Program-made: the position numbers and the translations under genes
In this document: piece after piece, positions 1-55,945 of the stretch
How the letters are laid out: every line of letters begins with the position of its first letter
Numbering within the stretch: position 1 is the stretch's first letter
From: a virus
Lineage: Duplodnaviria > Caudoviricetes
Length of the DNA: 62,716 bases
Direction: 5' to 3' (one strand)
Virus record (IMG/VR): IMGVR_UViG_3300044613_003165
Coordinates: 1 to 62,716 of that record
The notes under the pieces: generated by a model
Database searches by the model: none
What the model was told of the DNA's origin: nothing
Seen by the model: only the letters and a program-made list of their open reading frames with translations

Positions 1-885
1 GCGCATATTTCAGATACGCATTTTGGTGCTAATATCGAAAAAAGAGAAATGGGTCAAATTAACGAGTTTAACTGGAGCATTGCTTCAAGGCGAATGGGGC
101 TATTTGCTGAGCAAGTAGTCCAGTATAAACCACAACATCGAAAAGAAACTGACTTAGTTGTAGCCCTAAATGGCGACATTATTGCAGGAATGATTCATGA
201 CCAGGAATGGTTTGCTGATCTTTTAACTAAACAAGTAGCTGGATCTATTAAACTATTAACTCAATTCGTAAGTTACGTAGCCGGACACTTTAATAAAGTA
301 AAGGTAGTTTGTACTGTAGGTAATCACGGTAGGGCTATGCATAAATCTAACAAAAGTCGAGCTACTACGCATAAATGGGATTCCTACGAGAACATGATTT
401 ACATAGCTTTAAAGTACGCAATGGAAGCTAAACATAAAAATGTTACTGTAGAAATTCCTGTATCGCCATATGCTATTATTGATATTCAGGGTCATAAGTT
501 TTTGCAGACTCATGGAGATACTGTAATTAACGTGGGTAATCCTGGGTCTAGCATTAACATGAAAAGTATTAATACTCAAATTAAGAATTTAAATAGTTCG
601 GATATTGCGCCTACTAAGTTTTCGGGTGTTTTAGTTGGACACGTTCATGTGCCGACCGTTCAAGTAACCGATAACGGTACTGTTCTTTTAGTAAACGGAA
701 CCCTATCTGGTGCCGATCCCTACGTACAAAGCATTGGTATTTTTAGTAATGAACCTACCCAAATGATGTTTGAGGTTACGAAAGATCACGCTGTTGGAGA
801 TATCCGTTTTGTTCGTTTACAAGATGCTGATAAGAGAGTCGAATTAGAAAAGATTATTGAACCTTTAATTAACGAACTGGAGTAA
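1..885 (+). CDS. Calcineurin-like metallophosphoesterase (5' truncated by window edge)
   Basis: Frame is open from base 1 (AHISDTHFG = DxH motif), followed by GD, GNH, HGD and GHxH motifs. Confidence 0.8.
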   Translation, partial: AHISDTHFGANIEKREMGQINEFNWSIASRRMGLFAEQVVQYKPQHRKETDLVVALNGDIIAGMIHDQEWFADLLTKQVAGSIKLLTQFVSYVAGHFNKVKVVCTVGNHGRAMHKSNKSRATTHKWDSYENMIYIALKYAMEAKHKNVTVEIPVSPYAIIDIQGHKFLQTHGDTVINVGNPGSSINMKSINTQIKNLNSSDIAPTKFSGVLVGHVHVPTVQVTDNGTVLLVNGTLSGADPYVQSIGIFSNEPTQMMFEVTKDHAVGDIRFVRLQDADKRVELEKIIEPLINELE

Positions 886-10083: not shown

Positions 10084-11514
10084 TTATTCCTCAAATCCTA
10101 TAAATTTTTTATTTTCGTCAAATAAAGCAATTTTACCGTCTTTTTGTTTTTGTCTGAACTTGACTGCACTTGTTGAAGTAGCTGCTTTTTGTGCAGAATC
10201 TTTTCTTTCTTTTGCTCTAGCTTGAGCTTCTTCTCTAGCTTGTGCTATTGTTTGAACGGATTCTAAAGTAGGATCTTCAAAATCAGCAAGATCGTCCTGA
10301 CCTAGTAATATAAGGGTGTCGTTTACTGAATATGGTCTTTCTAAAGTTTCGCTCATGTTTCTAGCAAATTGTCGTGCTCTGACTCTAGTAATAACGTTTC
10401 TTCGGTCTTTTGCCATTTCTGTTAGCGTTAGCATAGATGCTTTAATTAATTCAGCATTTTCTTCAGTTAAAGTACCTGTTGCTAATGTCTGTAAAAATTG
10501 AGTAATTCTTGGTACTAAGGCTTTATTTGCAACATATCGAGTAACGTCGGCTTCGGATAAAGCACCTACTTCACCCATAGCTTTAGCTACTTTTACACCA
10601 GCTTGCGCTGCGGCTTGTGGAATTGTTTTTGCTTTTTCTGCAATAACATCAATTTGTTCACCAGCTTTAATTTCTTCATTAACTTTTTCAAGAGCTTTAT
10701 TTACTCCATCCTGAAACTTAGCAGTTCTTTCTGTAGCGTATTGACGACCTTTACGATCTTCTTCTAATTTTCTTTGTGTTAATAGTTCTTGTTGACGTAA
10801 TGCTCTATCTGCTGCTGCACTTCTAGCGGTTTCTTTTCTTGCATCCAACTGTTCTTTTAGTTGTAATACTTTAAAATTATCATCTAATTGTTGAGCAGTC
10901 ATTCGCTCAAAACTAGGAGAACTAGCAAATTCAGGAAAGTTTTGTCTAATTAATTCGCGAGCACGTTTAGATTCTTCACTATTAGGATCTAATAGTTTTT
11001 GTTTATTAGTAAAGTCTAAGCGCTCAGCTTCGGATTTTCTTTGAGTTAGTAATTGTTCTACAGGAAGATTAGCTGATTCAAATAAACTTTTTGCAAATTG
11101 TGATTCATCTAATTTACCTTGATTAAATTGAGTAGCTCCTGATAAAATTTCATTAGCTGCTAAATTAATTCTAGCATCTCTTAAATTTTGATTAGCAAGT
11201 TCTTGAGCTTGTCTTAATTGAACATCACCTAACTCTTGTGGTTTAGTTAGGTCTTGTTCTAGCTCAGTTGGTTGCATTGAGCTTAGATCACGAGTAAGAT
11301 CTCTTACGCCTGGTTGTGTTTGTTTTTGAGGACCGAACTTTTGTAATAGCTTTTGATTTTGGTCATCTTTTTGCATTTGGGCGCGTTCAGCTTCACCAAA
11401 CTTACGAATCTCTTCAAAATACTCATCGCTTAATTGAGGAATGAGTTGTTCTTGAGATAATTCGTCTCTATTTTCAAAATCTAATTCAAAAGGCGATTGT
11501 CCTGGTAAGCGCAT
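10084..11514 (-). CDS. Internal virion / ejection protein
   Basis: Helical Q/E-rich protein in ejection-protein position; GALSEADV motif. Confidence 0.55.
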   Translation of the reverse strand: MRLPGQSPFELDFENRDELSQEQLIPQLSDEYFEEIRKFGEAERAQMQKDDQNQKLLQKFGPQKQTQPGVRDLTRDLSSMQPTELEQDLTKPQELGDVQLRQAQELANQNLRDARINLAANEILSGATQFNQGKLDESQFAKSLFESANLPVEQLLTQRKSEAERLDFTNKQKLLDPNSEESKRARELIRQNFPEFASSPSFERMTAQQLDDNFKVLQLKEQLDARKETARSAAADRALRQQELLTQRKLEEDRKGRQYATERTAKFQDGVNKALEKVNEEIKAGEQIDVIAEKAKTIPQAAAQAGVKVAKAMGEVGALSEADVTRYVANKALVPRITQFLQTLATGTLTEENAELIKASMLTLTEMAKDRRNVITRVRARQFARNMSETLERPYSVNDTLILLGQDDLADFEDPTLESVQTIAQAREEAQARAKERKDSAQKAATSTSAVKFRQKQKDGKIALFDENKKFIGFEE

Positions 11515-37596: not shown

Positions 37597-39657
37597 TTAT
37601 ACCTGAGTGGGCGGTAAGCCTCCTGGGGGAACGTCTGCTGGGTTAGTGGGTAGATCTTGGAACGGAGGAGGCGGAGTAGGCATATTTGGTTGCCTTACTT
37701 GATTTGCTTGTTCTACCCCTACTGGTAAGGGTTGTTGTACGTTTTCTGCTAGGTTTTGTGCAAAATTAGCTTCATCCCTGTTTAAAGTGGGGTTTTCTTC
37801 GGGAGCACCTGGAGGCGGTCCTTGTTGTTGATCTGGACTTAGTGGTTGTTGTTTTAAGATCATTAGTAATTCAGGATTAATTGTTTTTAATAAATCAATG
37901 TGTTCTTGAATGTGATTTAATACAATTCCAGCTAATTCATCGTTCATTCGTAGATCAGGATCGTTAAGAATAGAAGCATGGGCTTCAATGTGCTTAACGT
38001 GTTGGTCTGTTGGCAAGGCTTTTACTTCTTGCATATCAGCTAACCGTTCGTTTTCTGCTCGAATTAGGAATAGTTGATTTTGAGCAGCATCGGTCATTGT
38101 TTCAATAGAACCAGTATTTAAAACCGTAAAGTAATCGTCTACGTTTTGAATAAGCCCCATTTGAATTAGGTTATTAGCGATTTCTAATCGACCTGCTGTG
38201 GTTTTACTAAGAGGATTTGCTACAGTAACTTTTACACGATTAATGCTTAAAAGATCTTCGCCTTTAAATTGTTTAACATAAGACTTATTTGACTTACCTA
38301 CAATAGACGCTACTCGTGGTGTAGTAGCAAAATCTTGTAGTAGTTTAATAATAGCGGTTCCTACGTCTTCCATTAGTCGAACATAGGATTGTTGTAATCC
38401 ACTAGCAAATTGTACAGCTTGTGCTTGAACTAGAGCAAGTGCCGCTCCTGACTTAAGACTTGCTTCTGGATTACCTCGAACTACCGAGTTAATACCAGAA
38501 AGAGTTTCCATTTGACTTTCAATAGTTCTAATAAAATTAAAGATTTCAGGAGGAGTTTGGGTTAAATTTAGAGCCTGGGGTTTGTCCATACCCTGTTCGT
38601 ATTCAATAACATTTAATCCGCCAGAAAGCTCATTGGTGTTTAAATTAGCTCCTTTGGGAATTAGAATATTTTGAACACCAAATGCGTTTTGGTTAGTGGC
38701 TACAGTGCTATAAAGAGCGTTTACTGTCTCTTGTAGAGGAATAACATCAAACATCGGAGTATAACCAAGCGGTGTTCCTAGAATGTCAGAAGGGGCCATT
38801 CTAAAAATAGGAATAAACCTATAAGGAAGTGGTCCATCGTAAGCGACTGCTTTAGGTGTAATAATAATCATATATCGACCGTCTGGTAGGGCATCTGAAC
38901 GACGGTGATAGAATTCATAAATCGGAATAAGATCGGTTTTGTCTTGCTTAAGACCGCCAAATAGGTTATTAACTTCTTGGTCGTCTTTAGACTCTACACC
39001 CATGATTTCTTCTTCAAAATCAGGATATTTAGCAATTAGTTCATAACGATTTCTAAATACACGAACAATTACCCAATCGTGGTCTTGGTCTTCGCGTGAA
39101 GTATCTCGTACAACATCAAGAGGCGATAGGTTACTAAACTTAATATCGCCTTCAAAGATTGTAGTTTGAGTTTCTTCATTAAATCCGTAGGGTTCTCCTC
39201 CGGTTGAATCCCATTCTACTTTTACATATCCTTCGCCTAATACGATGGCGTATTCTGCGGCACGCTTTAAATATTCTTCTAGACGTTTTTCTACAACGTA
39301 ATAATCTAAAAGACCATTAGCTAGTTTAGTTTGAACTAGAGATTTAAAATCGGTATTTGTGCTACGAGCTTCCATTGAAGGACGGTTAGCTGTAGTCATG
39401 TTAAGCAAGTGAACTGCAATATTTCTAAAGTGGTTAACGGCTAATTGGGCTAATTCGCCTTGTTCTCCGCCGAACGACAACTGATGACCACTTGATAAAT
39501 CTTGAAAATAAACGCCGTGATAACATCTCCAGCTATTCTTACATTTTTCAATATAATTAGATGTAGAAAGTGAAGTGTTCCACCCAATTGTTTTACCTAA
39601 AATAGCTCTTGCTGCTTCTTCGGTAGTTAGTTTAGCAAAGTATTCGTTTTTGTTCAT
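37597..39657 (-). CDS. Portal protein (P22-like)
   Basis: Follows terminase; VNHFRNI...NRP, LSGINSVVRG....KSGAALA, Pro/Gln-rich tail. Confidence 0.85.
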   Translation of the reverse strand: MNKNEYFAKLTTEEAARAILGKTIGWNTSLSTSNYIEKCKNSWRCYHGVYFQDLSSGHQLSFGGEQGELAQLAVNHFRNIAVHLLNMTTANRPSMEARSTNTDFKSLVQTKLANGLLDYYVVEKRLEEYLKRAAEYAIVLGEGYVKVEWDSTGGEPYGFNEETQTTIFEGDIKFSNLSPLDVVRDTSREDQDHDWVIVRVFRNRYELIAKYPDFEEEIMGVESKDDQEVNNLFGGLKQDKTDLIPIYEFYHRRSDALPDGRYMIIITPKAVAYDGPLPYRFIPIFRMAPSDILGTPLGYTPMFDVIPLQETVNALYSTVATNQNAFGVQNILIPKGANLNTNELSGGLNVIEYEQGMDKPQALNLTQTPPEIFNFIRTIESQMETLSGINSVVRGNPEASLKSGAALALVQAQAVQFASGLQQSYVRLMEDVGTAIIKLLQDFATTPRVASIVGKSNKSYVKQFKGEDLLSINRVKVTVANPLSKTTAGRLEIANNLIQMGLIQNVDDYFTVLNTGSIETMTDAAQNQLFLIRAENERLADMQEVKALPTDQHVKHIEAHASILNDPDLRMNDELAGIVLNHIQEHIDLLKTINPELLMILKQQPLSPDQQQGPPPGAPEENPTLNRDEANFAQNLAENVQQPLPVGVEQANQVRQPNMPTPPPPFQDLPTNPADVPPGGLPPTQV

Positions 39658-39683: not shown

Positions 39684-41171
39684 TTATTTCTTTTTAATAA
39701 AAATGTCTTTTATAACTTGGGCAGTTTCAGTCAAGTCATTGATATTACGGTAAAATGTGTCTTTTGATAATCCGTAGTTTCTAGGATAGGGATTTTTACG
39801 CCAATCTATATTACGCACTAAATAAATGGCCGCGTCTATTAGGTCGTAGTGGCCGCCTTCTGGCGATCTATCATAGCTTTTCTTGTTTTTAGCCCAAGTA
39901 GCGTTTTTTAATTGAAATATAAAATTTTTACATTTAGGATTAATTATAATTTGTTTATTAGCTATTCGATCTCTAAAATCGTTTAATGCTGCTGATTTTT
40001 CATCTTTTCTAGTTAGAGCAAAGGATAGCTCATAAGTAGAAATCATTTCGTTTAATGCAATCTGTTCGTTATTATCAGCTATTCTTTTAGTAACAGGTAA
40101 TACCTTATTAGTTTTGGGATCTGTCCAAAGCTCTTTCTCTTTTTCTATAATAGCATTGGCTATAGTTGAAACTCTGGCTTGCTGACCATTAAATAAAAGT
40201 TCATCTTCTACAACTAGTTTAGCGTTTCTAAAATCATAATACGCGAATAATATAGCAGTAAAGTCCTTTACACCTAAGTCCATAGAAACATAAGTATCAA
40301 AACGAGGAGGTTTTATCCAACTATGTACTATTTCCGATTCTAGCTCATTAGTAAATTCAGGAATCACGCTATATTCTTCATTAGTAACAATTTCACACAA
40401 ATATTCGCGTTTCCAGTCGTTTGGTTTAGTTACTTTTCTAAGTCTTTCTACTTCTTCTGGAGCTAGTCTGTCTCTGAGGTAGGCTGGATCGCTTTTTACT
40501 TGTTCAAGGTACTCATAAATGCTCATTTTAATATAAGCGTTATCAAACTGAGCGTTTTTAATAAAATCTACTAGATCATGGCTTGCTGATTTAGGCGGAG
40601 AAGAAACTATTAGGATTCTTCCCTTGGTTGTCGATGTCATAGGCAATAGAACGGCGTTTACTGCGTATTCTAGATCATCTACGAATCCTGCTTCATCAAC
40701 AATAATTAAATTAGCTGGAGTTCCTCGTAAATCGTCAGCTTTTCCACCATCCAAACCTTCAATGTATAAAATAGAACCGTTATTAAAATTATAACAACCT
40801 TCTATTCGATTAAATGACGGTCTGATGTCTTTTGGGCACTCTTGTAGTATCTTTCTTAGAGTTGGTCTTAGGATTTTACCTACCGCTTTAGCTTGACCGG
40901 CACAATATTTCACTTGACAATTAGGTGTAGATAGACAAGTTTCTAGTGCTAGAGTAATAAGTGTGAATGATTTACCAATTTGCCTAGAGCAGTTCCAAAC
41001 TGTTACCTTATGGTCATTTCTTTTGTATTTATTGTATAGTTTCTTTTGAGCGGAGTCTAGTTTCCAGTGTAATACGCCACGACGCCACAATATTTCCGTA
41101 GCTTCTAGCTCGGTCATTTCTTTTAACGCCGGAAATGCGTCAAAATTATACTTTTTCTCCGTTGTCGTCAT
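39684..41171 (-). CDS. Terminase large subunit
   Basis: Walker A CSRQIGKS, LRG...IIVDEAG, motif III SSP, nuclease MDLG..D and HYDLIDA. Confidence 0.92.
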   Translation of the reverse strand: MTTTEKKYNFDAFPALKEMTELEATEILWRRGVLHWKLDSAQKKLYNKYKRNDHKVTVWNCSRQIGKSFTLITLALETCLSTPNCQVKYCAGQAKAVGKILRPTLRKILQECPKDIRPSFNRIEGCYNFNNGSILYIEGLDGGKADDLRGTPANLIIVDEAGFVDDLEYAVNAVLLPMTSTTKGRILIVSSPPKSASHDLVDFIKNAQFDNAYIKMSIYEYLEQVKSDPAYLRDRLAPEEVERLRKVTKPNDWKREYLCEIVTNEEYSVIPEFTNELESEIVHSWIKPPRFDTYVSMDLGVKDFTAILFAYYDFRNAKLVVEDELLFNGQQARVSTIANAIIEKEKELWTDPKTNKVLPVTKRIADNNEQIALNEMISTYELSFALTRKDEKSAALNDFRDRIANKQIIINPKCKNFIFQLKNATWAKNKKSYDRSPEGGHYDLIDAAIYLVRNIDWRKNPYPRNYGLSKDTFYRNINDLTETAQVIKDIFIKKK

Positions 41172-41442
41172 TATTACCTGATTTATCCTCAATTACTTTA
41201 GAAATAATTACATCGGTCGGGATGCTTTCGCGCTCTTCTTCTAGCTTTTTGAACTTAGCTTCGATAATGCCAGTAGCTTCACCCTTAGAAATCTGTAAAT
41301 TCTTAACTAACATATCGTAAATCTTAACTTCTTCTAGAGTTAGCGATCTTTCTTTAGCTTTTTCTAGTAAAATATTAAGTTGCATCTCAGCAATAGCTTG
41401 TGCTGGTGTAGGCTCTATAATAATTTCCTTTTTCTTAGACAT
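41146..41442 (-). CDS. Hypothetical protein, candidate terminase small subunit
   Basis: Helical ORF overlapping the start of the large subunit (positional inference). Confidence 0.4.
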   Translation of the reverse strand: MSKKKEIIIEPTPAQAIAEMQLNILLEKAKERSLTLEEVKIYDMLVKNLQISKGEATGIIEAKFKKLEEERESIPTDVIISKVIEDKSGNNDDNGEKV

Positions 41443-42623: not shown

Positions 42624-42905
42624 ATGAGTGCAAAAGAACTAGAGTTATCGCTTATTAATTCGTTTATTGAAAGTGCTGAAAAGATTAGGGACGAAGAAAA
42701 TCCAGATAAGGTTAGCGGGTATTTAATGATTTTAGCATTACATAATCTAGCTATGGCATCTTTTCTAGAACTTAGTGCTAAAGAAATTGATAAAGACAAA
42801 TTAAATCAACAAATTGAGATTGTATTAGAAGAATTAACTAAACGTAAGATGCAAATTGAAAACGTTAATGGTATTATTTACAAAGGTCCAAAAGGAGAGG
42901 CTTAA
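42624..42905 (+). CDS. Hypothetical protein
   Basis: Coupled (TAATG) to the AAA gene. Confidence 0.55.
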   Translation: MSAKELELSLINSFIESAEKIRDEENPDKVSGYLMILALHNLAMASFLELSAKEIDKDKLNQQIEIVLEELTKRKMQIENVNGIIYKGPKGEA

Positions 42906-43897
42906 TGGCTGGTAAGTACGTTTTAGAAAAGGCTCACAAAGTAGAAAACTTTAAAGTAGGAGATGAGTTATTAGAATCGGATTTTTCTCATTTTAATAAT
43001 GATACTTTTTATCAATGGAAATATATTCCAGACAAAGAAGAACAAGACTTTTTAGAGATTACTCCTGGTTGTTGGCGTTTTGAACATAAAGAGTCTGATA
43101 TCGTTTTAAGGAAAGCACACTTTACTAAAAATAATAAACTATTAGAAGAATACATTCATACTAAAAACTTAACCGATAAAATTGATAGTTTTTTTAATAA
43201 ACTAGACGTATATAAAAAATACGAGGTGTTTCCTAAAAGGGGTATTCTTTTACACGGCCCTCAAGGAACAGGTAAAAGCCAAATTATCTCTAAGATTTCG
43301 GAAACATATTTAAACGATCCTAACACCGCTGTACTTATTTGGCCTACCGACAAGTTTAAAGCTAGAGACATTAACTATTCTCTACAGGTAATGAAATATA
43401 CTAATGTAGATAAATTAATTTTAGTTATTGAGGATATTGGTGGAGTATCGGTAAAAACAGAAGGCCAGCAATTAGCGGTAGAACCCAGTCTGCTTAACTT
43501 GCTTGATAATACTCAAGATACATTTAAAATAGCTACGCTTATTATAGCAACAACTAACTTCCCAGAAAACCTTTTACAAAATCTATCTAATAGACCACAA
43601 AGATTTGATTACTTATATAAAGTAGATAATCCTAGCTCTGAATTCAGATCTAAATTTTTAGAATTTTTTAGTCTAAATAAAGCTTCAGAAGAAGAACTTA
43701 AGCTTATTGCTCATAAAAAATATGATAAGTTTAGCGTAGCACATATTAAAGAAGTAGTTATTCGTTCTGAATTACACGATATTAGTATTAAAGAAAGTAT
43801 GAATGAACTACTAAAACAATCTGAATTAAGCGCTAATCAATTTCAAGCAGAAAAAAATAAAGTAGGCATTGGAAGTAGTTTTGACGATTATGAATAA
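42905..43897 (+). CDS. Classic-clade AAA ATPase (FtsH/Cdc48-like module, no protease domain)
   Basis: RGILLHGPQGTGKS, VIEDI, ATTN, RPQRFD arginine finger. Confidence 0.85.
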   Translation: MAGKYVLEKAHKVENFKVGDELLESDFSHFNNDTFYQWKYIPDKEEQDFLEITPGCWRFEHKESDIVLRKAHFTKNNKLLEEYIHTKNLTDKIDSFFNKLDVYKKYEVFPKRGILLHGPQGTGKSQIISKISETYLNDPNTAVLIWPTDKFKARDINYSLQVMKYTNVDKLILVIEDIGGVSVKTEGQQLAVEPSLLNLLDNTQDTFKIATLIIATTNFPENLLQNLSNRPQRFDYLYKVDNPSSEFRSKFLEFFSLNKASEEELKLIAHKKYDKFSVAHIKEVVIRSELHDISIKESMNELLKQSELSANQFQAEKNKVGIGSSFDDYE

Positions 43898-45914: not shown

Positions 45915-46396
45915 TGCTAGATATAAAACTACTATTGAATATTACAATAGCCGTATACTTACCCTTACTATTAATAGCAATTGGTTATTATATTTATAAT
46001 AAAGTTAATCGTTTTAAAGAATTTTTAGACGATTATAATATGGACTTTAAAAAATATATTATTCGGGGTTTAAAACGGTTTAAAGTCGGAGATATACTAA
46101 TCCAAGAAGAACCCTACTTAGGACAACCCATTGAAGAACTAAAAGAAAATAGAGATATTATAAAAATATTAACCATAGGCAAACACACTATGGTAGAGGT
46201 ACTAGAACAAACTAGTAGTCCTTCTACTTCTATTTCTCCTACAGTAGCACCAGTAAGACGCTTACCTTATTTATCTAAAAGAGCGGGGTTTCAAGATAAA
46301 ATAGTTTACGAAATGCCATTAACAGTTATTAAGTATCGTTTTAATAAACATAAAAAAACTATTATACAAGACGAAGTAAACGAATGGCTAAAATAA
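45914..46396 (+). CDS. EWLK-tail family protein with N-terminal TM
   Basis: FKVGD motif; ends IQDEVNEWLK. Confidence 0.6.
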   Translation: MLDIKLLLNITIAVYLPLLLIAIGYYIYNKVNRFKEFLDDYNMDFKKYIIRGLKRFKVGDILIQEEPYLGQPIEELKENRDIIKILTIGKHTMVEVLEQTSSPSTSISPTVAPVRRLPYLSKRAGFQDKIVYEMPLTVIKYRFNKHKKTIIQDEVNEWLK

Positions 46397-46704
46397 ATTT
46401 TACTTTTAGACAAGACATAATACTGTACTTTACACCAATTAAAGATAAACTATATTATCCTATCCCATATCAAAAAATAGCCATAGGCCCCCTTGAGTTT
46501 AACATAATCATAGACAAAAGAGAATTAGTTAAATTAGTAAATAATAGAATAGTATACGCCTACACAACAAAACTACAAACTCCTAAACGATACACTACAT
46601 TTAAAACGTATGGTATAATGGATGATATCTATTATATAGAAATAGACGAATCTTTATTTAAAGTAGAACAAACTAATAAAGAAATACTAGAATGGCTAAA
46701 GTAA
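46384..46704 (+). CDS. EWLK-tail family protein
   Basis: Ends QTNKEILEWLK. Confidence 0.6.
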   Translation: MAKINFTFRQDIILYFTPIKDKLYYPIPYQKIAIGPLEFNIIIDKRELVKLVNNRIVYAYTTKLQTPKRYTTFKTYGIMDDIYYIEIDESLFKVEQTNKEILEWLK

Positions 46705-46916
46705 TCTTTTACTATAAAGATACCCTAACTGGCCATATCCTATCAGCCGTACCTATTGAAGGCTCTAGTCAAATAACCATTAGACATTGGAGTAACGATC
46801 AATGGGATGATAAAGAATGGACTGTACACATTGAGTTCTTAAACGAGTGTGTTGAAATACCTAACCCTGAGAAAGCTCTACAAACCGAATTCGACATCAA
46901 AAACTGGCTAAAGTAA
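46692..46916 (+). CDS. EWLK-tail family protein
   Basis: Ends QTEFDIKNWLK. Confidence 0.6.
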   Translation: MAKVIFYYKDTLTGHILSAVPIEGSSQITIRHWSNDQWDDKEWTVHIEFLNECVEIPNPEKALQTEFDIKNWLK

Positions 46917-46918
46917 CC

Positions 46919-47161
46919 TTATTTTAACCACTCTTCTATTTCTTCATCAGTTAACTGCCCTTTATAAAAATCAAAATTATTATCGACGTAATTTAAATCA
47001 AAAAATGCACCAGAGTAGTATTTGTCAAGTACAAGACAATACATACCATCGTGGACATATTTAACAGTAAAAATAAATTTAGAGTTTACGTAATTATATT
47101 CATTAGTTTTATCTGTACAAATTATTTTATCGCCCGCTTTAAATTTATAACTATATTCCAT
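46919..47161 (-). CDS. EWLK-tail family protein
   Basis: KFKAGD start; ends LTDEEIEEWLK. Confidence 0.65.
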   Translation of the reverse strand: MEYSYKFKAGDKIICTDKTNEYNYVNSKFIFTVKYVHDGMYCLVLDKYYSGAFFDLNYVDNNFDFYKGQLTDEEIEEWLK

Positions 47162-47162
47162 G

Positions 47163-47438
47163 TTATTTAAACAATTCCTGTACCTCTGATTCAGTAAATT
47201 TAGTTTTTACAAACTCAGGTGATACCTCAGTAAAAAAACCAGTATTACGGATATAGATCCTACTTTTATATGGACTGCCATTTTTTTTAAAAACCCTATA
47301 AACCCCTTTATCATCTTTTGTATATATTGGCAATTTTGTAATAATACCATTTATAAAATCGTTATGTTCGTAGATCTTAACATAATATTTATCCTTTTCT
47401 AAGTCGCACATACTCAACACTAAACCGTTTACTAACAT
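47163..47438 (-). CDS. ELFK-tail variant protein (tandem paralog)
   Basis: Ends FTESEVQELFK; paralog of 47449-47724. Confidence 0.65.
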   Translation of the reverse strand: MLVNGLVLSMCDLEKDKYYVKIYEHNDFINGIITKLPIYTKDDKGVYRVFKKNGSPYKSRIYIRNTGFFTEVSPEFVKTKFTESEVQELFK

Positions 47439-47448
47439 TCTATCATCC

Positions 47449-47724
47449 TTATTTAAACAATTCGTTTATTTCTAGTTCTGCCAACTTAGCTTTTACAAAC
47501 CCAGGCTCTAACTCATAAAAATAAGTAGATTTAAAACTAAAATAAACTTTACGCTTATACAAACTACCGTCTTTTTTAAAAACTTTATAAATCCCTTTAT
47601 TATCTTTTGAATATACGGGCAATTTTGCAATAATACCCTTTTCAAAATTACGAAATTCGTAACCATGAGCGTAATACTTACCTTCTTCTAACTTATCAGT
47701 AGAAATTAAAAGACTTACAATCAC
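47449..47724 (-). CDS. ELFK-tail variant protein (tandem paralog)
   Basis: Ends LAELEINELFK; shares GII.KLP.Y.KD.KG.Y.VFKK.GS.YK. Confidence 0.65.
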   Translation of the reverse strand: MIVSLLISTDKLEEGKYYAHGYEFRNFEKGIIAKLPVYSKDNKGIYKVFKKDGSLYKRKVYFSFKSTYFYELEPGFVKAKLAELEINELFK

Positions 47725-47784
47725 CTTACCAATCTACCACATAATCCTACAAACCGCAACACTAAACCTGGTTTACCAACGACT

Positions 47785-47818
47785 CAAACCCTACCCAAAC
47801 CCTACCCAAACCCTAACC
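47785..47818. repeat. Telomere-like 11-bp tandem repeat (CAAACCCTACC); five G3 tracts on minus strand
   Basis: caaaccctacccaaaccctacccaaaccctaacc. Confidence 0.8.
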
Positions 47819-48234
47819 TCGTATAACCGCCTATACGCCTCTATAAACGCTAAATGTTTAAACCCTAGCCTACCCCGCACGTACCCCTAACTTATATAAG
47901 CCTATAGCCCTATAATCCATTTATTACGCCTAGGTTAGTATAGCCGCTTAACGCTTACAAGCCCCTTACCTATTCACAACTTGATTTACAACTAACTTAA
48001 CCCAAATGGTTGTAAAAGTGGTTGTATAAGTACATCGGTTACGTAGATATTACCATAAAAACGGTAATACGTACACTTATAGTATACCAAAGGTTTATTA
48101 TAGCCCTTAGGATACAAACGCTTATAAACTATAGGGTTTTTATAGCCCTGGGCTTACAAGCGCGAAAAAAGGGAGATAAGCGTGAGTGACAGTATAAATA
48201 TAAATTTGGTTGTAGGTTACTCCTACCCCCCACT

Positions 48235-48326
48235 TGGCACGGTTTTTGCTATATGCAAAAACTATGCCTGCCTATTTACAAGAACTTTACGCAAGAATTG
48301 TACCAAGACCTGGCACGGTTTTTGCT
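48235..48326. promoter_or_regulatory. Cluster of four sigma54 (-24/-12) elements, orientation + - - +
   Basis: TGGCACGGTTTTTGCT (48235-50 and 48311-26), AGGCATAGTTTTTGCA (48269-54), TGGTACAATTCTTGCG (48305-290); all GG-N10-GC. Confidence 0.75.
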
Positions 48327-48518
48327 ACGCGTATACCTCCTATATAATGGGCTCAGAACTCGAGTGACCTTAACAAGATCTTAACAGAATTTTTGTAAAC
48401 ACTTTGGGCAGGGGTGTCAAAAAATAAACGCTTGAAATCATTGACGATTCACGCAACCTTAACAAAAATGTACAAAAGTTCGACACCACAGTTTCGTGCA
48501 ACCCATTGAATTTACAGG

Positions 48519-48534
48519 TGGCACAGCGCGTGCA
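48519..48534 (+). promoter_or_regulatory. sigma54-type promoter for a leaderless mRNA starting near ATG 48546
   Basis: TGGCACAGCGCGTGCA; IHF-like CAACCCATTGAAT at 48499. Confidence 0.6.
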
Positions 48535-48545
48535 ATTACCTAAGT

Positions 48546-48737
48546 ATGAACAACGAACAAGTGACCGAACACAAGTCAAAGGCCGAGGCAATCAAGTACC
48601 TCAAGGCTAAGGGCTACGAGTACACCGAACGCAATGACTTTGGCGATTGCGCGTGGCTCTACAGCAACGAAAATTATGCAATGCTTAGCTACAACAACAA
48701 AAATACAGTGACTATAGTAGAGGCAAAAAAACACTAG
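48546..48737 (+). CDS. Early hypothetical protein
   Basis: ORF directly after sigma54 element; no SD. Confidence 0.55.
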   Translation: MNNEQVTEHKSKAEAIKYLKAKGYEYTERNDFGDCAWLYSNENYAMLSYNNKNTVTIVEAKKH

Positions 48738-48764
48738 TTCCGCTTAACAACAAAGGGGGAAATC

Positions 48765-48995
48765 ATGGGAACAAAAACACAAGTCATTGAATTCATTGAA
48801 CACAACGAAATTGATGTGCGGACATTGAGTCTAGTTGACGACGATCCCGAGTTCGGGACAAGTGACATTAGTGACATTGAGGGCGACCTCTGTACTGTTG
48901 AGGCCTTGACTTTGGATGGGCTTGAGTTCAATTTTCAAATACTGAATGGCGGAAAAGAATTTGATATCATCGGCAAGTTGGCCGGATGGTTTTGA
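48765..48995 (+). CDS. Early acidic hypothetical protein
   Basis: SD AAGGGGG; very acidic. Confidence 0.6.
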   Translation: MGTKTQVIEFIEHNEIDVRTLSLVDDDPEFGTSDISDIEGDLCTVEALTLDGLEFNFQILNGGKEFDIIGKLAGWF

Positions 48996-49021
48996 ACACA
49001 AAAATTGTAGGGAGTCAAGCA

Positions 49022-49129
49022 ATGAACACAAAAAAATTCAAAGGTAAAATTATCCGAATCAAAGGCCCCATCAAATTGTGCAGCATCGCTAAACTCAAGG
49101 CATTGGGCTTTGTAGTTATAATGGCATAG
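49022..49129 (+). CDS. 35-aa basic peptide (not in ORF track)
   Basis: SD GGAG; fills gap in operon. Confidence 0.5.
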   Translation: MNTKKFKGKIIRIKGPIKLCSIAKLKALGFVVIMA

Positions 49130-49138
49130 GGAGGATTT

Positions 49139-49321
49139 ATGAACAAAAATAGAGCTATTGAATTAGTGACATCACTTCTAAACGACATGGACTTATGGCA
49201 AGGCGAGCATGCGGAGTTCGATCACTTGTTAAGTCAAGGCGTGGCAATGCTCGAATTAGGGTATACATTAGGGCAAGTAGATGAGTGCCTTAATAATAAA
49301 ATTCAAGACTTGGCCGCCTAG
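49139..49321 (+). CDS. Early hypothetical protein
   Basis: SD GGAGG. Confidence 0.6.
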   Translation: MNKNRAIELVTSLLNDMDLWQGEHAEFDHLLSQGVAMLELGYTLGQVDECLNNKIQDLAA

Positions 49322-49408
49322 CAAGAAGTCAAGACTTTTGCTGGACATTGGGCGATTCTCGGGCGTAAGGCTCGAGGATCGCTCTATTTTGTTTAGGCGC
49401 GCTCTAAT

Positions 49409-49578
49409 GGCCTTGCCCTGCCCTGTCCTGCCCTGTCCTGTCTTGGCCTGTCCTGTCCTGTCTTGGCCTGTCCTGTCTTGGCCTTGCCCTGCCTTGCCCT
49501 GCCCTGCCTTGCCTTGGGTGCTTTGCTCGAGCCTTGGTGCCTTGCTGGAGCCTTGCTTTGGTGCTTTGCTCGAGCCTT
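49409..49578. repeat. Degenerate pentamer array (C/T/G)C(C/T)TG, about 21 units, then GGTGCTTTGCTCGAGCCTT repeats
   Basis: No A on the + strand from 49409 to 49529. Confidence 0.9.
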
Positions 49579-49863
49579 AGCGAATTTTATCACTTCAAGC
49601 TCTTATGCGCCTAAGTCATTGAATTCACGCGCGACACTAAAAATGCCCATAGCGATTTCTAGAATTGTAGGTCTAGTTTTGCTAAGTTATTGAATTTATA
49701 CGAAGGTCTAGAAAGGCCCAGGTAAATTTTCATTTTTATATTTACAGATAAGCTAAACTATTGAATATACTATAATGGTAAATAATTCTCTATATAGATG
49801 AGTGAAAGGTCTAGATAAACGTTTATAAATTGACTTAGCTTGTTTTTGGGCATAGGCTAAGCA

Positions 49864-50004
49864 CCATTATACCATATTAGACACCTATGGAAATCGAGTC
49901 AAGTTAAGATTTAGTTAAGGGATTCATTTTTTATGGGCACAGCTATCCCATTATATCAATTTAGCATCCGGAGGTCTATTTGTCAAGTTAAGTTTATGTT
50001 AAGG
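49864..50004 (-). promoter_or_regulatory. Duplicated leftward sigma70-like promoter units (49864-49920 and 49948-50004)
   Basis: TTGACT-N17-TAATAT and TTGACA-N17-TAAATT, both preceded by CCTTAAC-N5-CTTAAC and followed by TATAATGG. Confidence 0.6.
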
Positions 50005-50444
50005 CGCTTATTGAATAGATTAAAGTTGGATTATTGTTAATAAAATAAGGGATTGTGAATAGAATAGTGGGTGCATTGGGTGCGGAGTATTGATTCAATA
50101 AATAATTTTCAGTATTACGTCCCTCCATTCTCGCCTACCTTGCATCTATACCCTATCTTATTGGATCTATTAATCTTTTAAAGCTTTATTAGACGCTCTT
50201 TACGCCGCTATAAGCGCACTTAATAGCCTAAACCGTTGATTATATACTAAGTACCTCTAAAGCGTCCCTAATCACCTTTTAAACTGTACAATAGACCACT
50301 AAGCGCCTATAAGTTCGACACTAAGCCTAAGTGCTCAAATTAATTAATACCCTTGAGGGATTATTAAGCTTAAGTTAAGCCTTTGTATATAAGTTATACA
50401 GGATCTATATTTAACTATTCTTTAAAGTCTAGTTAGTTAACCTT

Positions 50445-50460
50445 TGGCATAGCTTTAGCA
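50445..50460 (+). promoter_or_regulatory. sigma54-like element upstream of 50474
   Basis: TGGCATAGCTTTAGCA, GG-N10-GC; ATG 14 nt downstream. Confidence 0.45.
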
Positions 50461-50473
50461 TTATACTAATTAT

Positions 50474-50851
50474 ATGGGAACACAAGTTATAAACCAAATC
50501 ACTGAAGCTCTAGTTAAGGGTATACTTTCTTCTAATGGATCTAGTGTTAATTCTTTAGGTCAAACTATTGAGTCTAATATAGGCTATATGGTTAGCACTA
50601 AGCCTAACCTTGAATATATAGTAAATACCGCCGAGCCCCTATACTTTGAAGTCTTGGCCTACGTTGAACGAGTAGTCGGCTTATTAGGCGCTAATAGCGC
50701 TATAGGCGCTTGGGTAGACGCTAAGTCGGGCAAAGTGTACCTAGACGTGTCCGAATGCATTCTAGACCTTAATACGGCCATTAAACTAGCTAAACAAGCC
50801 AACCAAAAGGCTATTTTTGATCTTAACAGAAAGGAAACCATATATGTCTAA
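50474..50851 (+). CDS. Early phage protein (possible SAM-lyase-like fold)
   Basis: IGAWVD...YLDVS...AIKLAKQANQKAIFDL. Confidence 0.5.
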   Translation: MGTQVINQITEALVKGILSSNGSSVNSLGQTIESNIGYMVSTKPNLEYIVNTAEPLYFEVLAYVERVVGLLGANSAIGAWVDAKSGKVYLDVSECILDLNTAIKLAKQANQKAIFDLNRKETIYV

Positions 50852-51047
50852 TCTAATCACTAAGTTAAGTCTATTGGAAATTATTAGCCTTGAGGGACCT
50901 AAAAGCTTAGGCGAAGTCCTAAGGTACTATCCGCAAAATGCGTACCGTGAGGACATAAAGGCTTTATTGGATGAACTAGTAAAAGAGGGCAAGTTGACCT
51001 TTCAAATGACCAAAGGCATTTATAGGTCAAATATAAGTTTAAAATAA
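50844..51047 (+). CDS. Winged-helix DNA-binding protein
   Basis: LLEII...GPKSLGEV...IKALLDELVKEGKL..KGIY. Confidence 0.55.
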   Translation: MSNLITKLSLLEIISLEGPKSLGEVLRYYPQNAYREDIKALLDELVKEGKLTFQMTKGIYRSNISLK

Positions 51048-53621: not shown

Positions 53622-54698
53622 ATGAAGCCAAACGATATTAACAAAATCCTAGACCTTGCCAAAAGTGCTCGAAGCAAAGGATTCACGTTTAACCCGCTTT
53701 TCGTAGGTGACGCGGGCATTGGGAAGTCTAAAATTTGTCAACAATGGGCTGAAAAACAAAAACAATCGGACCCCGATTTTGGGTTTATTGACTTGCGCAT
53801 GGCTTATCTTGAAGCTCAAGACCTTGTAGGAATGCCGCGTAGCGAAGGTGGCCGGACTGTTTATTCTTTGCCTGAATTTTGGCCTACTTCTGGCAGCGGG
53901 CTTTTGTTGCTAGAGGAACCTAATAGAGCGCATCCGCAAACGATGCAAGCTCTAATGCAGTTGACTACTGACCGAAAGGTGCATGATTATAAACTTCCTG
54001 CGGGATGGATTATCGCTGGAGCTATTAACCCTGAAAGTTCTAGTTATTCGGTTGAAACAATGGACGCAGCGCTTAAAAACCGATTCCAATTGTTTGAAAT
54101 TAATTATGACCATTCTAGTTTTGTTGACTTTATGAAAGAAAGAAAATTTAGCGATAATGTTATTTCATTTGTTAATAGCGGAGTTTGGACCTTTAAAAGC
54201 GCATCTGAAAATGTGGAACACTATATTTCACCTAGAACCTGGCACGCAATGAGTGACGCTGAATTGTCGGGACTCACGAGCGAGTTTAAGGAAATGCACC
54301 ACGAAGCCGCTATTGCAATTTTAGGCAAAAGTGTAGGGAAGGAATTCCACGCCTATTGCTTCCTTGAAACTCCTGTATTGCTAAAAGACCTTTTGAACAG
54401 CCCAAAGGAAGCCAAGAAGAAACTTAAGAAGCACGCAAGCGAAGAATCCTATCGTGGGGATTTGCTCAATGTTACAATTAACAGCATCTTGAGCGAATAC
54501 AATGGCGAGCAAGACAAGCTAGAAAAATTTGAAGACCTTGTTTTGATGGTTGCAGATCTTTTGCCCGCCGATCTTTCTTTGAACCTGATTAAAGAATTCA
54601 CTAATAAAGTTCCTGACAAAAACTATAAGATAGCGACTCTACTGGATAAAAACCCTGAAATCAAGAAGTCACTAGAAAAACGCTTTAAGGGGATTTAA
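53622..54698 (+). CDS. MoxR/dynein-related AAA+ ATPase
   Basis: GDAGIGKS, DLVGMP, LLLEEPNRA, AGAIN, MDAALKNRF, SPRTW. Confidence 0.9.
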   Translation: MKPNDINKILDLAKSARSKGFTFNPLFVGDAGIGKSKICQQWAEKQKQSDPDFGFIDLRMAYLEAQDLVGMPRSEGGRTVYSLPEFWPTSGSGLLLLEEPNRAHPQTMQALMQLTTDRKVHDYKLPAGWIIAGAINPESSSYSVETMDAALKNRFQLFEINYDHSSFVDFMKERKFSDNVISFVNSGVWTFKSASENVEHYISPRTWHAMSDAELSGLTSEFKEMHHEAAIAILGKSVGKEFHAYCFLETPVLLKDLLNSPKEAKKKLKKHASEESYRGDLLNVTINSILSEYNGEQDKLEKFEDLVLMVADLLPADLSLNLIKEFTNKVPDKNYKIATLLDKNPEIKKSLEKRFKGI

Positions 54699-54700
54699 TT

Positions 54701-55945
54701 ATGTCAAATAAACTAGAACTAGCAAAGCAGCAACTAGAAAAGTGTTCTTATTATCTTAACTATAAAAGCAAGCTTATTTTTGTTAGTTCGGTGGCGCAGT
54801 CAATGCATGTTAACTTTAGCGAAAGTTTGCCTACAGCGGGAGTTATGTTTGATGAAAAGATTAAGCAGTTTAAGCTATTTATTAACCCTGATTTTCTTTT
54901 GAAGCTTAGCATCGCAGAGGGAGCCGCAGTATTAACCCACGAGATTTATCATATTTTCCACAAGCACGTCTATTATAATCACACTCAATATAATAAAATG
55001 ATCCTTAATATCGCAATGGACCTAGTTATTAATCAGTTAATTGAAGATTTACCCAAGGAGGCAATGTTTTTAAAGAATTTTAAACAGAAAGACGGAAGCC
55101 CATTCCCTAAGAATAAACCGACTGAAGTATACTATGATTTGCTAATGAATAGTGACTTTAACCCTAATCCTGACGGCGATCAAAGCAACCCGATGCCTAA
55201 TGAGTGGAAGGACACTAAGGAAGCTTTTACTAAGAAACAACACGCTTTTGATTCGCATGAATGGGGAGAAACACAAGATGAGGCTCAATTAAAAGAAAAA
55301 CTAGAAGCAGTTCAACAATTAGCTAAGCGCGCTAAAGAACAAACAGAGAAGGCACACTCAAAGACCCCTGAATTCGTAGAAGACTTACTAGAACAAATAA
55401 ACAAGGAACTCGCTAAACTTGATTATAAGTCTATTTTGATGCATACACTTAAGCGATCTATGCCCGCCAAAACGCTAATTAAGACACGCAAAAGACCCTC
55501 TAGACGCTTTGGTGAAATAGCACCAGGGAATAAACTAGGTGAAATGCCTAGAGTTTACTTCTTGGCCGACACTTCCGGTTCTATTTCCTACAATGAGTTA
55601 AGCGAGTTTCTTAATGTTACTAATGGATTTATGGTTAATGGTGTTTCTAAGGCTGAAATCGGCTTGTTTCATACTTCCCTTTATCACGAAGAAAGGATTA
55701 AGAAAAATTTTACTATCAACGAGTCTAAACTACAGTCCGGCGGAACCGAGTTAACCGATGCTTTGACCAAGGTTATCAAGAAAAACCCAGATCTTTTGAT
55801 TATTTTAACTGATGGGGAGTTTAGTATGCCTGAAATTGACACAAGAAAGCTTCCTAATACTGTGGTTGTTTTATCAAATACGCATCGCGACGATTGCCCT
55901 TTATCTACCCTTAAAAATGTAAAGACGGTTAAGTATGGATTCTGA
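54701..55945 (+). CDS. DUF2201-type metallopeptidase plus VWA domain protein
   Basis: PTAGV, HEIYH...NIAMDLVIN; MIDAS DTSGS, GGT, LTDG. Confidence 0.88.
   Translation: MSNKLELAKQQLEKCSYYLNYKSKLIFVSSVAQSMHVNFSESLPTAGVMFDEKIKQFKLFINPDFLLKLSIAEGAAVLTHEIYHIFHKHVYYNHTQYNKMILNIAMDLVINQLIEDLPKEAMFLKNFKQKDGSPFPKNKPTEVYYDLLMNSDFNPNPDGDQSNPMPNEWKDTKEAFTKKQHAFDSHEWGETQDEAQLKEKLEAVQQLAKRAKEQTEKAHSKTPEFVEDLLEQINKELAKLDYKSILMHTLKRSMPAKTLIKTRKRPSRRFGEIAPGNKLGEMPRVYFLADTSGSISYNELSEFLNVTNGFMVNGVSKAEIGLFHTSLYHEERIKKNFTINESKLQSGGTELTDALTKVIKKNPDLLIILTDGEFSMPEIDTRKLPNTVVVLSNTHRDDCPLSTLKNVKTVKYGF

Follow-up and report, generated by a model that had tools for sequence, protein, structure and literature searches.

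Sigma-54-type sites clustered in the divergent control region of an uncultured phage, with a head-to-head module that recurs in unrelated viral contigs

Sigma-54 stands alone among bacterial sigma factors in parking RNA polymerase on DNA until an ATP-driven activator intervenes, and we know of almost no role for it in phage biology. What, then, are several closely packed sigma-54-type sites, facing both ways, doing in the genome of an uncultured phage? The window, by which we mean the whole stretch of DNA analyzed (62,716 nucleotides), is an entire linear IMG/VR virus record of 62.7 kb, with an estimated completeness of 76%. Its structural genes occupy the minus strand, from 41192 down to ~4650. 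Plus-strand genes run from 48546 to the end of the record and include those for a DUF932 protein, a MoxR-like AAA_5 ATPase with a VWA/metallopeptidase partner, dCTP deaminase, ThyX, and a GMP-reductase-like enzyme. Because the minus-strand ORFs stop at 47724 and the plus-strand ORFs begin at 48546, we regard 47725-48545, where the ORF list of the window holds no convincing ORF, as a divergent control region. The main landmarks and the sites are as follows.

39684-41192, minus strand: large terminase (gene and profile search of the window)
37597-39657, minus strand: portal (gene and profile search of the window)
46919-47724, minus strand: three small ORFs of 80, 91, and 91 aa, diverging from the array (ORF list)
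48235-48250, plus strand: S1, TGGCACGGTTTTTGCT, 12/12, predicted start near 48261
48254-48269, minus strand: S2, AGGCATAGTTTTTGCA, inverted and sigma-54-like, 9/12, predicted leftward start near 48243
48290-48305, minus strand: S3, TGGTACAATTCTTGCG, weaker, 9/12
48311-48326, plus strand: S4, identical to S1 (TGGCACGGTTTTTGCT), 12/12, predicted start near 48337
48519-48534, plus strand: S5, TGGCACAGCGCGTGCA, 10/12
50445-50460, plus strand: weak sigma-54-like site, TGGCATAGCTTTAGCA, 9/12, 14 nt before the gene at 50474-50851

Scores count matches to the sigma-54 consensus TGGCACG-N4-TTGCW, our scoring standard, up to a maximum of 12, with GG and GC obligatory; predicted starts were placed by adding 12 nt to the -12 C. 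The sites listed for Salmonella in the available part of one study agree with this consensus (PMC3844500). The initial annotation had described four sites within 92 bp, two identical perfect-consensus sites on the plus strand flanking two on the minus strand, with the first pair head-to-head and 3 bp apart. All four are present in the sequence at those coordinates and in those orientations, S1 and S4 scoring 12/12 and S2 and S3 scoring 9/12. S3 and S4 stand back-to-back with a gap of 5 bp. In each of S1 to S4, and in S5 too, the GG and GC dinucleotides are exactly 10 bp apart, the spacing of sigma-54 elements, in a TGGCAC ... TTGCW context.

The whole-genome scan for significance that had been proposed bears out the array. 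In 200 first-order Markov simulations of the window, mean counts for scores of 9, 10, 11, and 12 were 7.5, 1.4, 0.16, and 0.005, versus 19, 1, 0, and 2 sites observed; two perfect sites thus stand against 0.005 expected. From the densities in these simulations, we estimate that the 60 bp separating S1 from S4 should contain ~0.003 minus-strand sites scoring at least 9/12; two are present. The exact pattern TGGCAC-N6-TGCW has three matches in the 62.7-kb record (S1, S4, and S5), all on the plus strand and all within 48235-48534, and the reversed control pattern has none in the record.

Other repeated sequences lie around the sites. Upstream of them are a 42-bp tandem duplication (48083-48166), several copies of a TATAGCC-containing motif (47933-48147), and three copies of TGGTTGTA, at about 48008-48026 and 48207-48214; all of these are possible binding sites for a regulator, enhancers, or elements of packaging. 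The motif CATTGAATT(T/C)A recurs at 48504-48524, 48781-48795, 49613-49627, and 49684-49698, one copy being directly upstream of S5 and others in the noncoding DNA at 49.6-50.1 kb.

The sites are directed toward genes. S2 and S3 face the leftward ORFs (46919-47724), which are possible targets of these two sites and of which the nearest is ~520 bp away. S1, S4, and S5 face a compact group of ORFs on the right.

48546-49321, plus strand: mini-operon of four small ORFs of 63, 76, 47, and 60 aa (48546-48737, 48765-48995, 48986-49129, and 49139-49321; ORF list)
49350-49394, plus strand: terminator-like hairpin (15 pairs, 9 of them G-C) followed by a T-run, which closes the mini-operon (terminator scan)

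S5 and this mini-operon are additions to the earlier account, which had held that no convincing gene follows the array directly. That view has to be given up: S5 abuts an ATG, and the terminated four-gene operon begins 219 bp downstream of S4. The ATG at 48546 comes 13 nt after the -12 C of S5, a leaderless geometry. None of the four ORFs has a Pfam or PHROG match. The 209-nt leader that separates S4 from the ATG is no more stably folded than shuffled versions of itself (z 0.49), and no Rfam family was found in 47000-51000. A sigma-70 scan of the gap returned a single plus-strand candidate, a weak pair (9/12) at 48441-48469, which could drive the operon instead; a TATAAT box is located at 48343-48348, downstream of S4. 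Just past the terminator, 49398-49578 is a low-complexity tract of CCTGY-type pentamers (nine overlapping copies of a 39-nt unit) followed by three repeats of 19-24 bp, and the 99-aa ORF that spans the tract (49281-49580) is probably spurious.

Contigs from four independent lake or freshwater runs were aligned to positions 46000-51000, with 49405-49522 left out as repeat. They are >99% identical to the window across 48029-49404 and thus offer no sequence variation for a conservation test. No RNA run was listed among those that carry this DNA. Unitig depth, on the other hand, points to a distinct block around the array.

47940-50112, no strand: block of raised depth, about 1.5- to 2.5-fold, in three runs, holding S1 to S5 and the mini-operon (unitig depth)

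Depth in runs X2, X3, and X4 is 8.2, 9.5, and 7.2 inside the block, 5.6, 3.9, and 3.6 to its left, and 3.3, 3.8, and 3.4 to its right; the contigs of X3, X4, and X5 all terminate at exactly 50112. The array lies ~0.3 kb inside this double-depth block of ~2.2 kb. Contig depth by itself gives a hint that the block may be a collapsed direct terminal repeat of ~2.2 kb, and a segment common to two co-occurring strains would look identical. Just left of the block, a strongly G-poor stretch (~47725-47990) contains three 11-bp direct repeats of the ACCCAAACCCTACCC type (47782-47818), and its minus strand has GGG runs with telomere- or G-quadruplex-like spacing.

S1 and S2 together belong to a class of modules that we defined as a half-site matching the consensus, followed after 1-8 bp by a second, inverted half-site that is specified loosely, with only GGCA and TTGCW fixed.

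48235-48269, both strands: head-to-head module S1+S2 (35 bp), fitting the class pattern with a gap of 3 bp; predicted divergent starts 18 bp apart

The pattern occurs in at least 120 stretches of viral contigs, which, among the matches listed, group into 71 nucleotide-level clusters with GC contents of 0.33-0.66. The same pattern is found in only 26 stretches across 596 Gb of prokaryote genomes, where ~9 chance hits are estimated and most stretches are in MAG contigs. Gaps of 1 to 8 bp were counted 7, 45, 31, 22, 45, 8, 1, and 3 times among the matches listed and are thus mostly 2-5 bp. The positions of the loose half-site that the search left free behave like those of sigma-54 sites: among the matches listed, 96% have T at position 1, 99% have a pyrimidine (C or T) at position 6, and 98% have a purine (G or A) at position 7, and the 5' flank is pyrimidine biased. 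ChIP-defined sigma-54 sites of Salmonella show the same degeneracy in the available part of the source (PMC3844500). This recurrence in unrelated phages, with sigma-54-specific degeneracy at positions that the search did not fix, upholds the original identification of the motifs as sigma-54-type sites and indicates that they are under selection.

Two features of the class bear on what might be selected. Between the 4-nt spacers of the two halves, a fraction of 0.24 of positions is complementary, versus 0.31 with shuffled partners, among the matches listed; since class spacers do not pair, selection acts on the protein-contact blocks and not on a hairpin. S1/S2 is an exception, with fully complementary spacers and a 49-nt single-stranded DNA hairpin of -10.7 kcal/mol (z -4.9). 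It is not an intrinsic terminator: the hairpin lacks a following T-run and is absent from the terminator scan. Packing is the other feature. Among the matches listed, sites are mostly 2-5 bp apart when head-to-head, 8-10 or 20 bp when back-to-back, and 10-12 bp in tandem, which is too tight for one holoenzyme per site.

The genomic context of the class is dominated by terminase. A large terminase gene is found downstream of the module in 69 of the 71 loci that hold one, among the matches listed, at a median distance of ~1.4 kb (range, 272-7546 bp); the window module, which is intergenic, is likewise upstream, 7043 bp from the terminase start (41192) and near the upper limit of this range. An all-against-all blastp comparison of flanking ORFs identified large terminase as the only widely common flanking protein family. 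The array is directly followed by a small terminase gene in two loci (L089 and L121), and the small-terminase candidates beside arrays belong to different families. Modules are also enriched 3- to 6-fold at contig ends among the matches listed, with 12 of 120 within 200 bp of an end versus 3.4 expected and, on contigs of at least 20 kb, 8 of 62 within 500 bp versus 1.4 expected; by true contig coordinates, 90 of the 120 arrays listed are >1 kb from a contig end. Two loci, L085 and L098, are the two ends of one 36.6-kb viral contig and share a ~440-bp direct repeat (94% identity) with sigma-54 arrays, in which a TTGACA-type box comes after the array.

Flanking gene orientation, called crudely, was confidently divergent in 19 cases, tandem in 19, and convergent in 3 among the matches listed. 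A distance of 10-15 nt from site to ORF start was observed for 4.4-4.7% of sites versus 1.4% of random positions, an enrichment that is partly an artifact of ATGs inside TGGCATG sites and of ORFs running through arrays; the class weakly supports the S5-to-ATG geometry.

Which phages carry such sites? The exact pair of 15-mers (S1 minus its last T), 30-60 bp apart, is present in 29 viral contigs, most of them ~11 kb long, and in 19 of the 29 the pair is found at both contig ends, inverted. One phi29-like contig of 11.2 kb (L009) encodes a protein-primed polymerase, a gp16-type ATPase, a connector, and a phi29-type capsid and has 342-bp inverted terminal repeats (1-342 and 10849-11190), each with two perfect sigma-54 sites and one degenerate site, all pointing inward. 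Each of these repeats also has two copies of TGTTTCACGTGGAACA, which we take to resemble a chromosomal parS site, and a TTTAACAT motif precedes each sigma-54 site. In cultured relatives of the 11-kb phages (Astrithrvirus; 56-58% capsid identity), the terminal repeats are devoid of sigma-54 sites. A different contig, L044, contains two copies of the S1 16-mer, each with an inverted sigma-54-like site 3 bp on, as in S1/S2, and has neither tblastx nor blastn similarity to the window. Just downstream of its sigma-54 units are three copies of the iteron CCGTATCAAGAATGATACACC (740-815, minus strand), and it also has several CGCTGTACGTCTC repeats and a further site, TGGCACGGGGTATGCA, at 279-294.

The window phage has no close relative among the sequences searched. 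A blastn search with 47000-50000 against cultured phages found nothing, and its terminase shares 23-24% identity with those of T5-like phages. The DUF932 protein has no relative in viral contigs and matched two short distant fragments in metagenome contigs. A terminase search identified one 43%-identical phage (G001), the last 20 kb of which has no tblastx similarity to the window; in an otherwise unrelated region of that phage (L165, 15328-15361), there is a degenerate head-to-head pair, TGGAACAATTTTTGCA on the plus strand and TGGCTCCTATATTGCT on the minus strand, 2 bp apart. A sigma-54 site was found in none of five cultured records (Astrithrvirus, two T5-like phages, a Vibrio phage, and YuA). 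The initial annotation had considered sigma-54 use unusual for a lytic phage; this is correct for the cultured phages tested and incorrect for uncultured viral contigs, among which the module is common.

If such sites are bound, the binder could be made by the phage or by its host. The window record (76% complete) has no match to Sigma54_activat (PF00158); among carriers, this family is present in 1 of 48 records and in none of the 12 that are ≥90% complete. Sigma54_DBD does not exceed the cutoff in any of 49 carrier records, and AAA_5 occurs in 8 of 49. On these counts (1/48, 0/49, and 8/49), the three families were rejected as a shared phage-encoded partner. The window does contain two AAA ATPase loci: at 53622-55945, the MoxR-like AAA_5 ATPase (358 aa) is followed by a protein with DUF2201 metallopeptidase-like and VWA-like domains, and a second AAA ATPase is encoded at 42905-43897. 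Neither ATPase matches the sigma-54 activator family, and no upstream activator or enhancer site was identified at the array. Among module-bearing prokaryote genomes, 17 of 25 have an rpoN match, 16 of them strong, a count that is uninformative because chance would account for ~9 of the 26 prokaryote stretches, most of which are in MAG contigs. With no recognizable phage-encoded partner and no shared family other than terminase, the conserved host factor sigma-54 is, on sequence grounds, the simplest candidate for a binder of the module sites. Activators that lack a DNA-binding domain can act on any closed complex, as described in the available part of one study (PMC3844500).

We favor, with slightly less than even confidence, the reading that host sigma-54 polymerase uses these sites as enhancer-dependent promoters and that S1/S2 is a compact bidirectional promoter. 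S1, S4, and S5 would be binding sites for the host sigma-54 holoenzyme, and S2 and S3 probably too, which would make the array an enhancer-dependent promoter cluster in the main divergent control region of the phage. The three plus-strand sites would fire rightward into the terminated operon of four tiny orphan genes, whose layout would be a typical early or host-takeover arrangement; judging by depth, this mini-operon probably lies inside a terminal repeat of ~2.2 kb. The S1/S2 palindrome would direct transcription both ways, with predicted RNAs starting ~18 bp apart in opposite directions, the predicted S1 start (~48261) falling inside S2 and the predicted S2 start (~48243) inside S1. Because the region from -12 to +1 of each site overlies its partner, a single polymerase would occupy S1/S2 at a time. 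The alternating orientation, at first thought to mark a special device, would be explained without one by divergent-promoter geometry in a divergent control region: the array is situated between divergent gene clusters, and the pair has the geometry of interdigitated divergent promoters. With no activator gene recognized in the phage, a host enhancer-binding protein would be needed to open the closed complex, and the genes of the mini-operon would in that case be gated on host physiology.

The perfect duplicated sites, their tight packing, the failure to find an activator, and the association with terminase and with genome ends keep other readings alive; in particular, identical perfect-consensus sites suggest selection for maximal affinity over tuned promoter strength, which argues against promoters. 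The model for an architectural alternative is IHF at lambda cosB. Sigma-54, or the holoenzyme in a closed complex, could similarly be a host architectural factor, with the sites acting in cis as docking sites that make no RNA at the genome end or packaging region, for example in end handling, packaging initiation, or DNA entry. The location of the module upstream of large terminase (69 of 71 loci among the matches listed and 7.0 kb in the window), the small terminase genes directly after the arrays of L089 and L121, the sites in the terminal repeats of the 11-kb phages, the 3- to 6-fold enrichment near contig ends among the matches listed, the position of the window array ~0.3 kb inside the double-depth block, and packing incompatible with simultaneous holoenzymes are all consistent with docking. 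Contig depth gives a weak hint for the earlier suggestion that the array may help to draw in the leading end of the genome. We nevertheless judge it unlikely. Most arrays (90 of 120 among the matches listed) are >1 kb from a contig end, and repeats themselves break assemblies and could mimic an association with ends; a promoter would also be expected at the start of a terminase operon, the best sites in the window are all gene directed, and no such role of sigma-54 appears in the literature searched.

It seems quite improbable that the array is a decoy, that is, that high-affinity sites on replicating phage DNA titrate scarce host sigma-54 and shut down sigma-54-dependent responses. Five sites per genome make a small sponge, and titration needs neither a constant position ahead of operons and terminase nor gene-directed orientation nor fixed head-to-head geometry, even if the sites are perfect, identical, and multiplied, no activator is encoded (none in the window record and 1 in 48 carriers), and silent sigma-54 sites have been suggested to act as decoys in the available part of an E. 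coli study (PMC4591121). Binding by another phage or host protein with sigma-54-like specificity, such as a dimeric regulator or a small terminase subunit, we consider very unlikely. A palindrome with a center of 1-6 bp is typical of dimeric regulators, sites are tightly packed, arrays occur near small-terminase genes, and only 16 of 25 module-bearing prokaryote genomes have a strong rpoN hit (~9 chance hits expected). However, at least 12 positions, the degeneracy, and the 10-bp block spacing all equal those of sigma-54; terminase is the only family common to carriers, whose small-terminase types differ; the sigma-54 DNA-binding domain is above the cutoff in 0 of 49 records; and the GC range of 0.33-0.66 (among the matches listed) points to a universally conserved host factor. 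Finally, chance motifs or a structural hairpin (terminator or cruciform) unrelated to sigma-54 are hardly credible: the Markov simulations of the window exclude chance, and although the S1/S2 spacers pair along their whole length and the 49-nt fold is stable (-10.7 kcal/mol; z -4.9), no T-run follows S1/S2, class spacers pair less than shuffled controls, and S4 and S5 have no inverted partner.

The module is present in dozens of unrelated uncultured phages and nearly absent from bacterial chromosomes. We consider it possible, if rather doubtful, that unrelated phages with hosts of 33-66% GC independently gained palindromic sigma-54 modules and use them unlike bacteria, either as bidirectional promoters with an unrecognized, nonclassical activator that is phage made or triggered by infection or as nontranscribing polymerase clamps that label the genome end used for packaging or entry. 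Either use, if true, would be a new mode of host-polymerase capture, of which the window would be a small and clean example. More generally, a phage-specific module of fixed geometry, if real, would mean a widespread tie of phage expression to host physiology or a parked polymerase with a nontranscriptional role. The module is short (35 bp) and makes concrete predictions, namely, the start sites, the mutual exclusion of two polymerases, and a requirement for both rpoN and an activator, and it is therefore directly testable with sigma-54 reagents from E. coli or Salmonella.

How does the promoter reading that we prefer compare with known systems? Phages T7, T5, and SPO1 carry tandem early promoters for host polymerase on the first-entering end or terminal repeat, and these promoters are of the self-starting sigma-70 type. 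The window is like them in having several same-direction predicted promoters before tiny genes, probably in a terminal repeat as judged from depth alone, and unlike them in that its sites are of the sigma-54 type and would not be self-starting. Hairpin early promoters of the N4 type are read by a giant virion RNA polymerase of the phage; the 11-kb phages with the same sites have no gene for an N4-type virion RNA polymerase, and the largest ORFs in the window record (76% complete) are 1143 and 1130 aa. The cultured, virulent Pseudomonas phage YuA has sigma-54-type promoters, as reported in the available part of the source (PMC10914365), and its annotation includes "-24/-12" promoter fragments (NC_010116). 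In the 50 kb scored, no YuA sequence matches TGGCAYR-N4-TTGCW or reaches 11/12, and, unlike the window phage, YuA has no arrays or palindromic modules. Sigma-54 promoter elements themselves are textbook; neither arrays of sigma-54 sites nor palindromic sigma-54 modules have been described for phages in the literature searched, supplements aside.

Bacterial systems offer closer parallels for individual features. On E. coli DNA, sigma-54 holoenzyme is for the most part transcriptionally silent and showed no roadblock effect, and decoy and architectural roles have been proposed for the silent sites in the available part of that study (PMC4591121). The phage sites would be similar insofar as high-affinity sites would hold polymerase without transcription; however, the silent sites described there are mostly single and inside genes, whereas the phage sites are intergenic, clustered, palindromic, and phage specific. 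For sigma-70 bidirectional promoters, Warman and colleagues found, in the available part of their preprint, that divergent starts are most often 18 bp apart (bioRxiv 10.1101/2020.01.31.928960); the DNA is pseudo-symmetric, it can be engaged in either orientation, and one binding event excludes the other (bioRxiv 10.1101/2020.01.31.928960; PMC12825309, available part). The S1/S2 geometry also predicts 18 bp, and gaps of 5 to 2 bp predict 16-19 bp. The symmetric elements here are -12/-24 boxes and not -10 hexamers, so only the logic is shared and the activity is predicted. The term "sigma54" is absent from the available part of the preprint, and this bidirectional logic has not been described for sigma-54 in the literature searched.

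The remaining comparison is with the enhancer-dependent sigma-54 promoters of bacteria themselves, of which the glnA, pspA, glnK, and prpB types are listed for Salmonella in the available part of the source (PMC3844500). The array differs from these in that no activator gene or enhancer site was found, in that its sites are perfect and duplicated, and in that one site is fused head-to-head with an inverted copy. Yet it shares with the bacterial promoters listed there the bipartite -24/-12 element, its degeneracy (TGGCAY-R ... TTGCW), and the orientation toward genes, and its predicted closed complex would, like theirs, need an ATPase activator.
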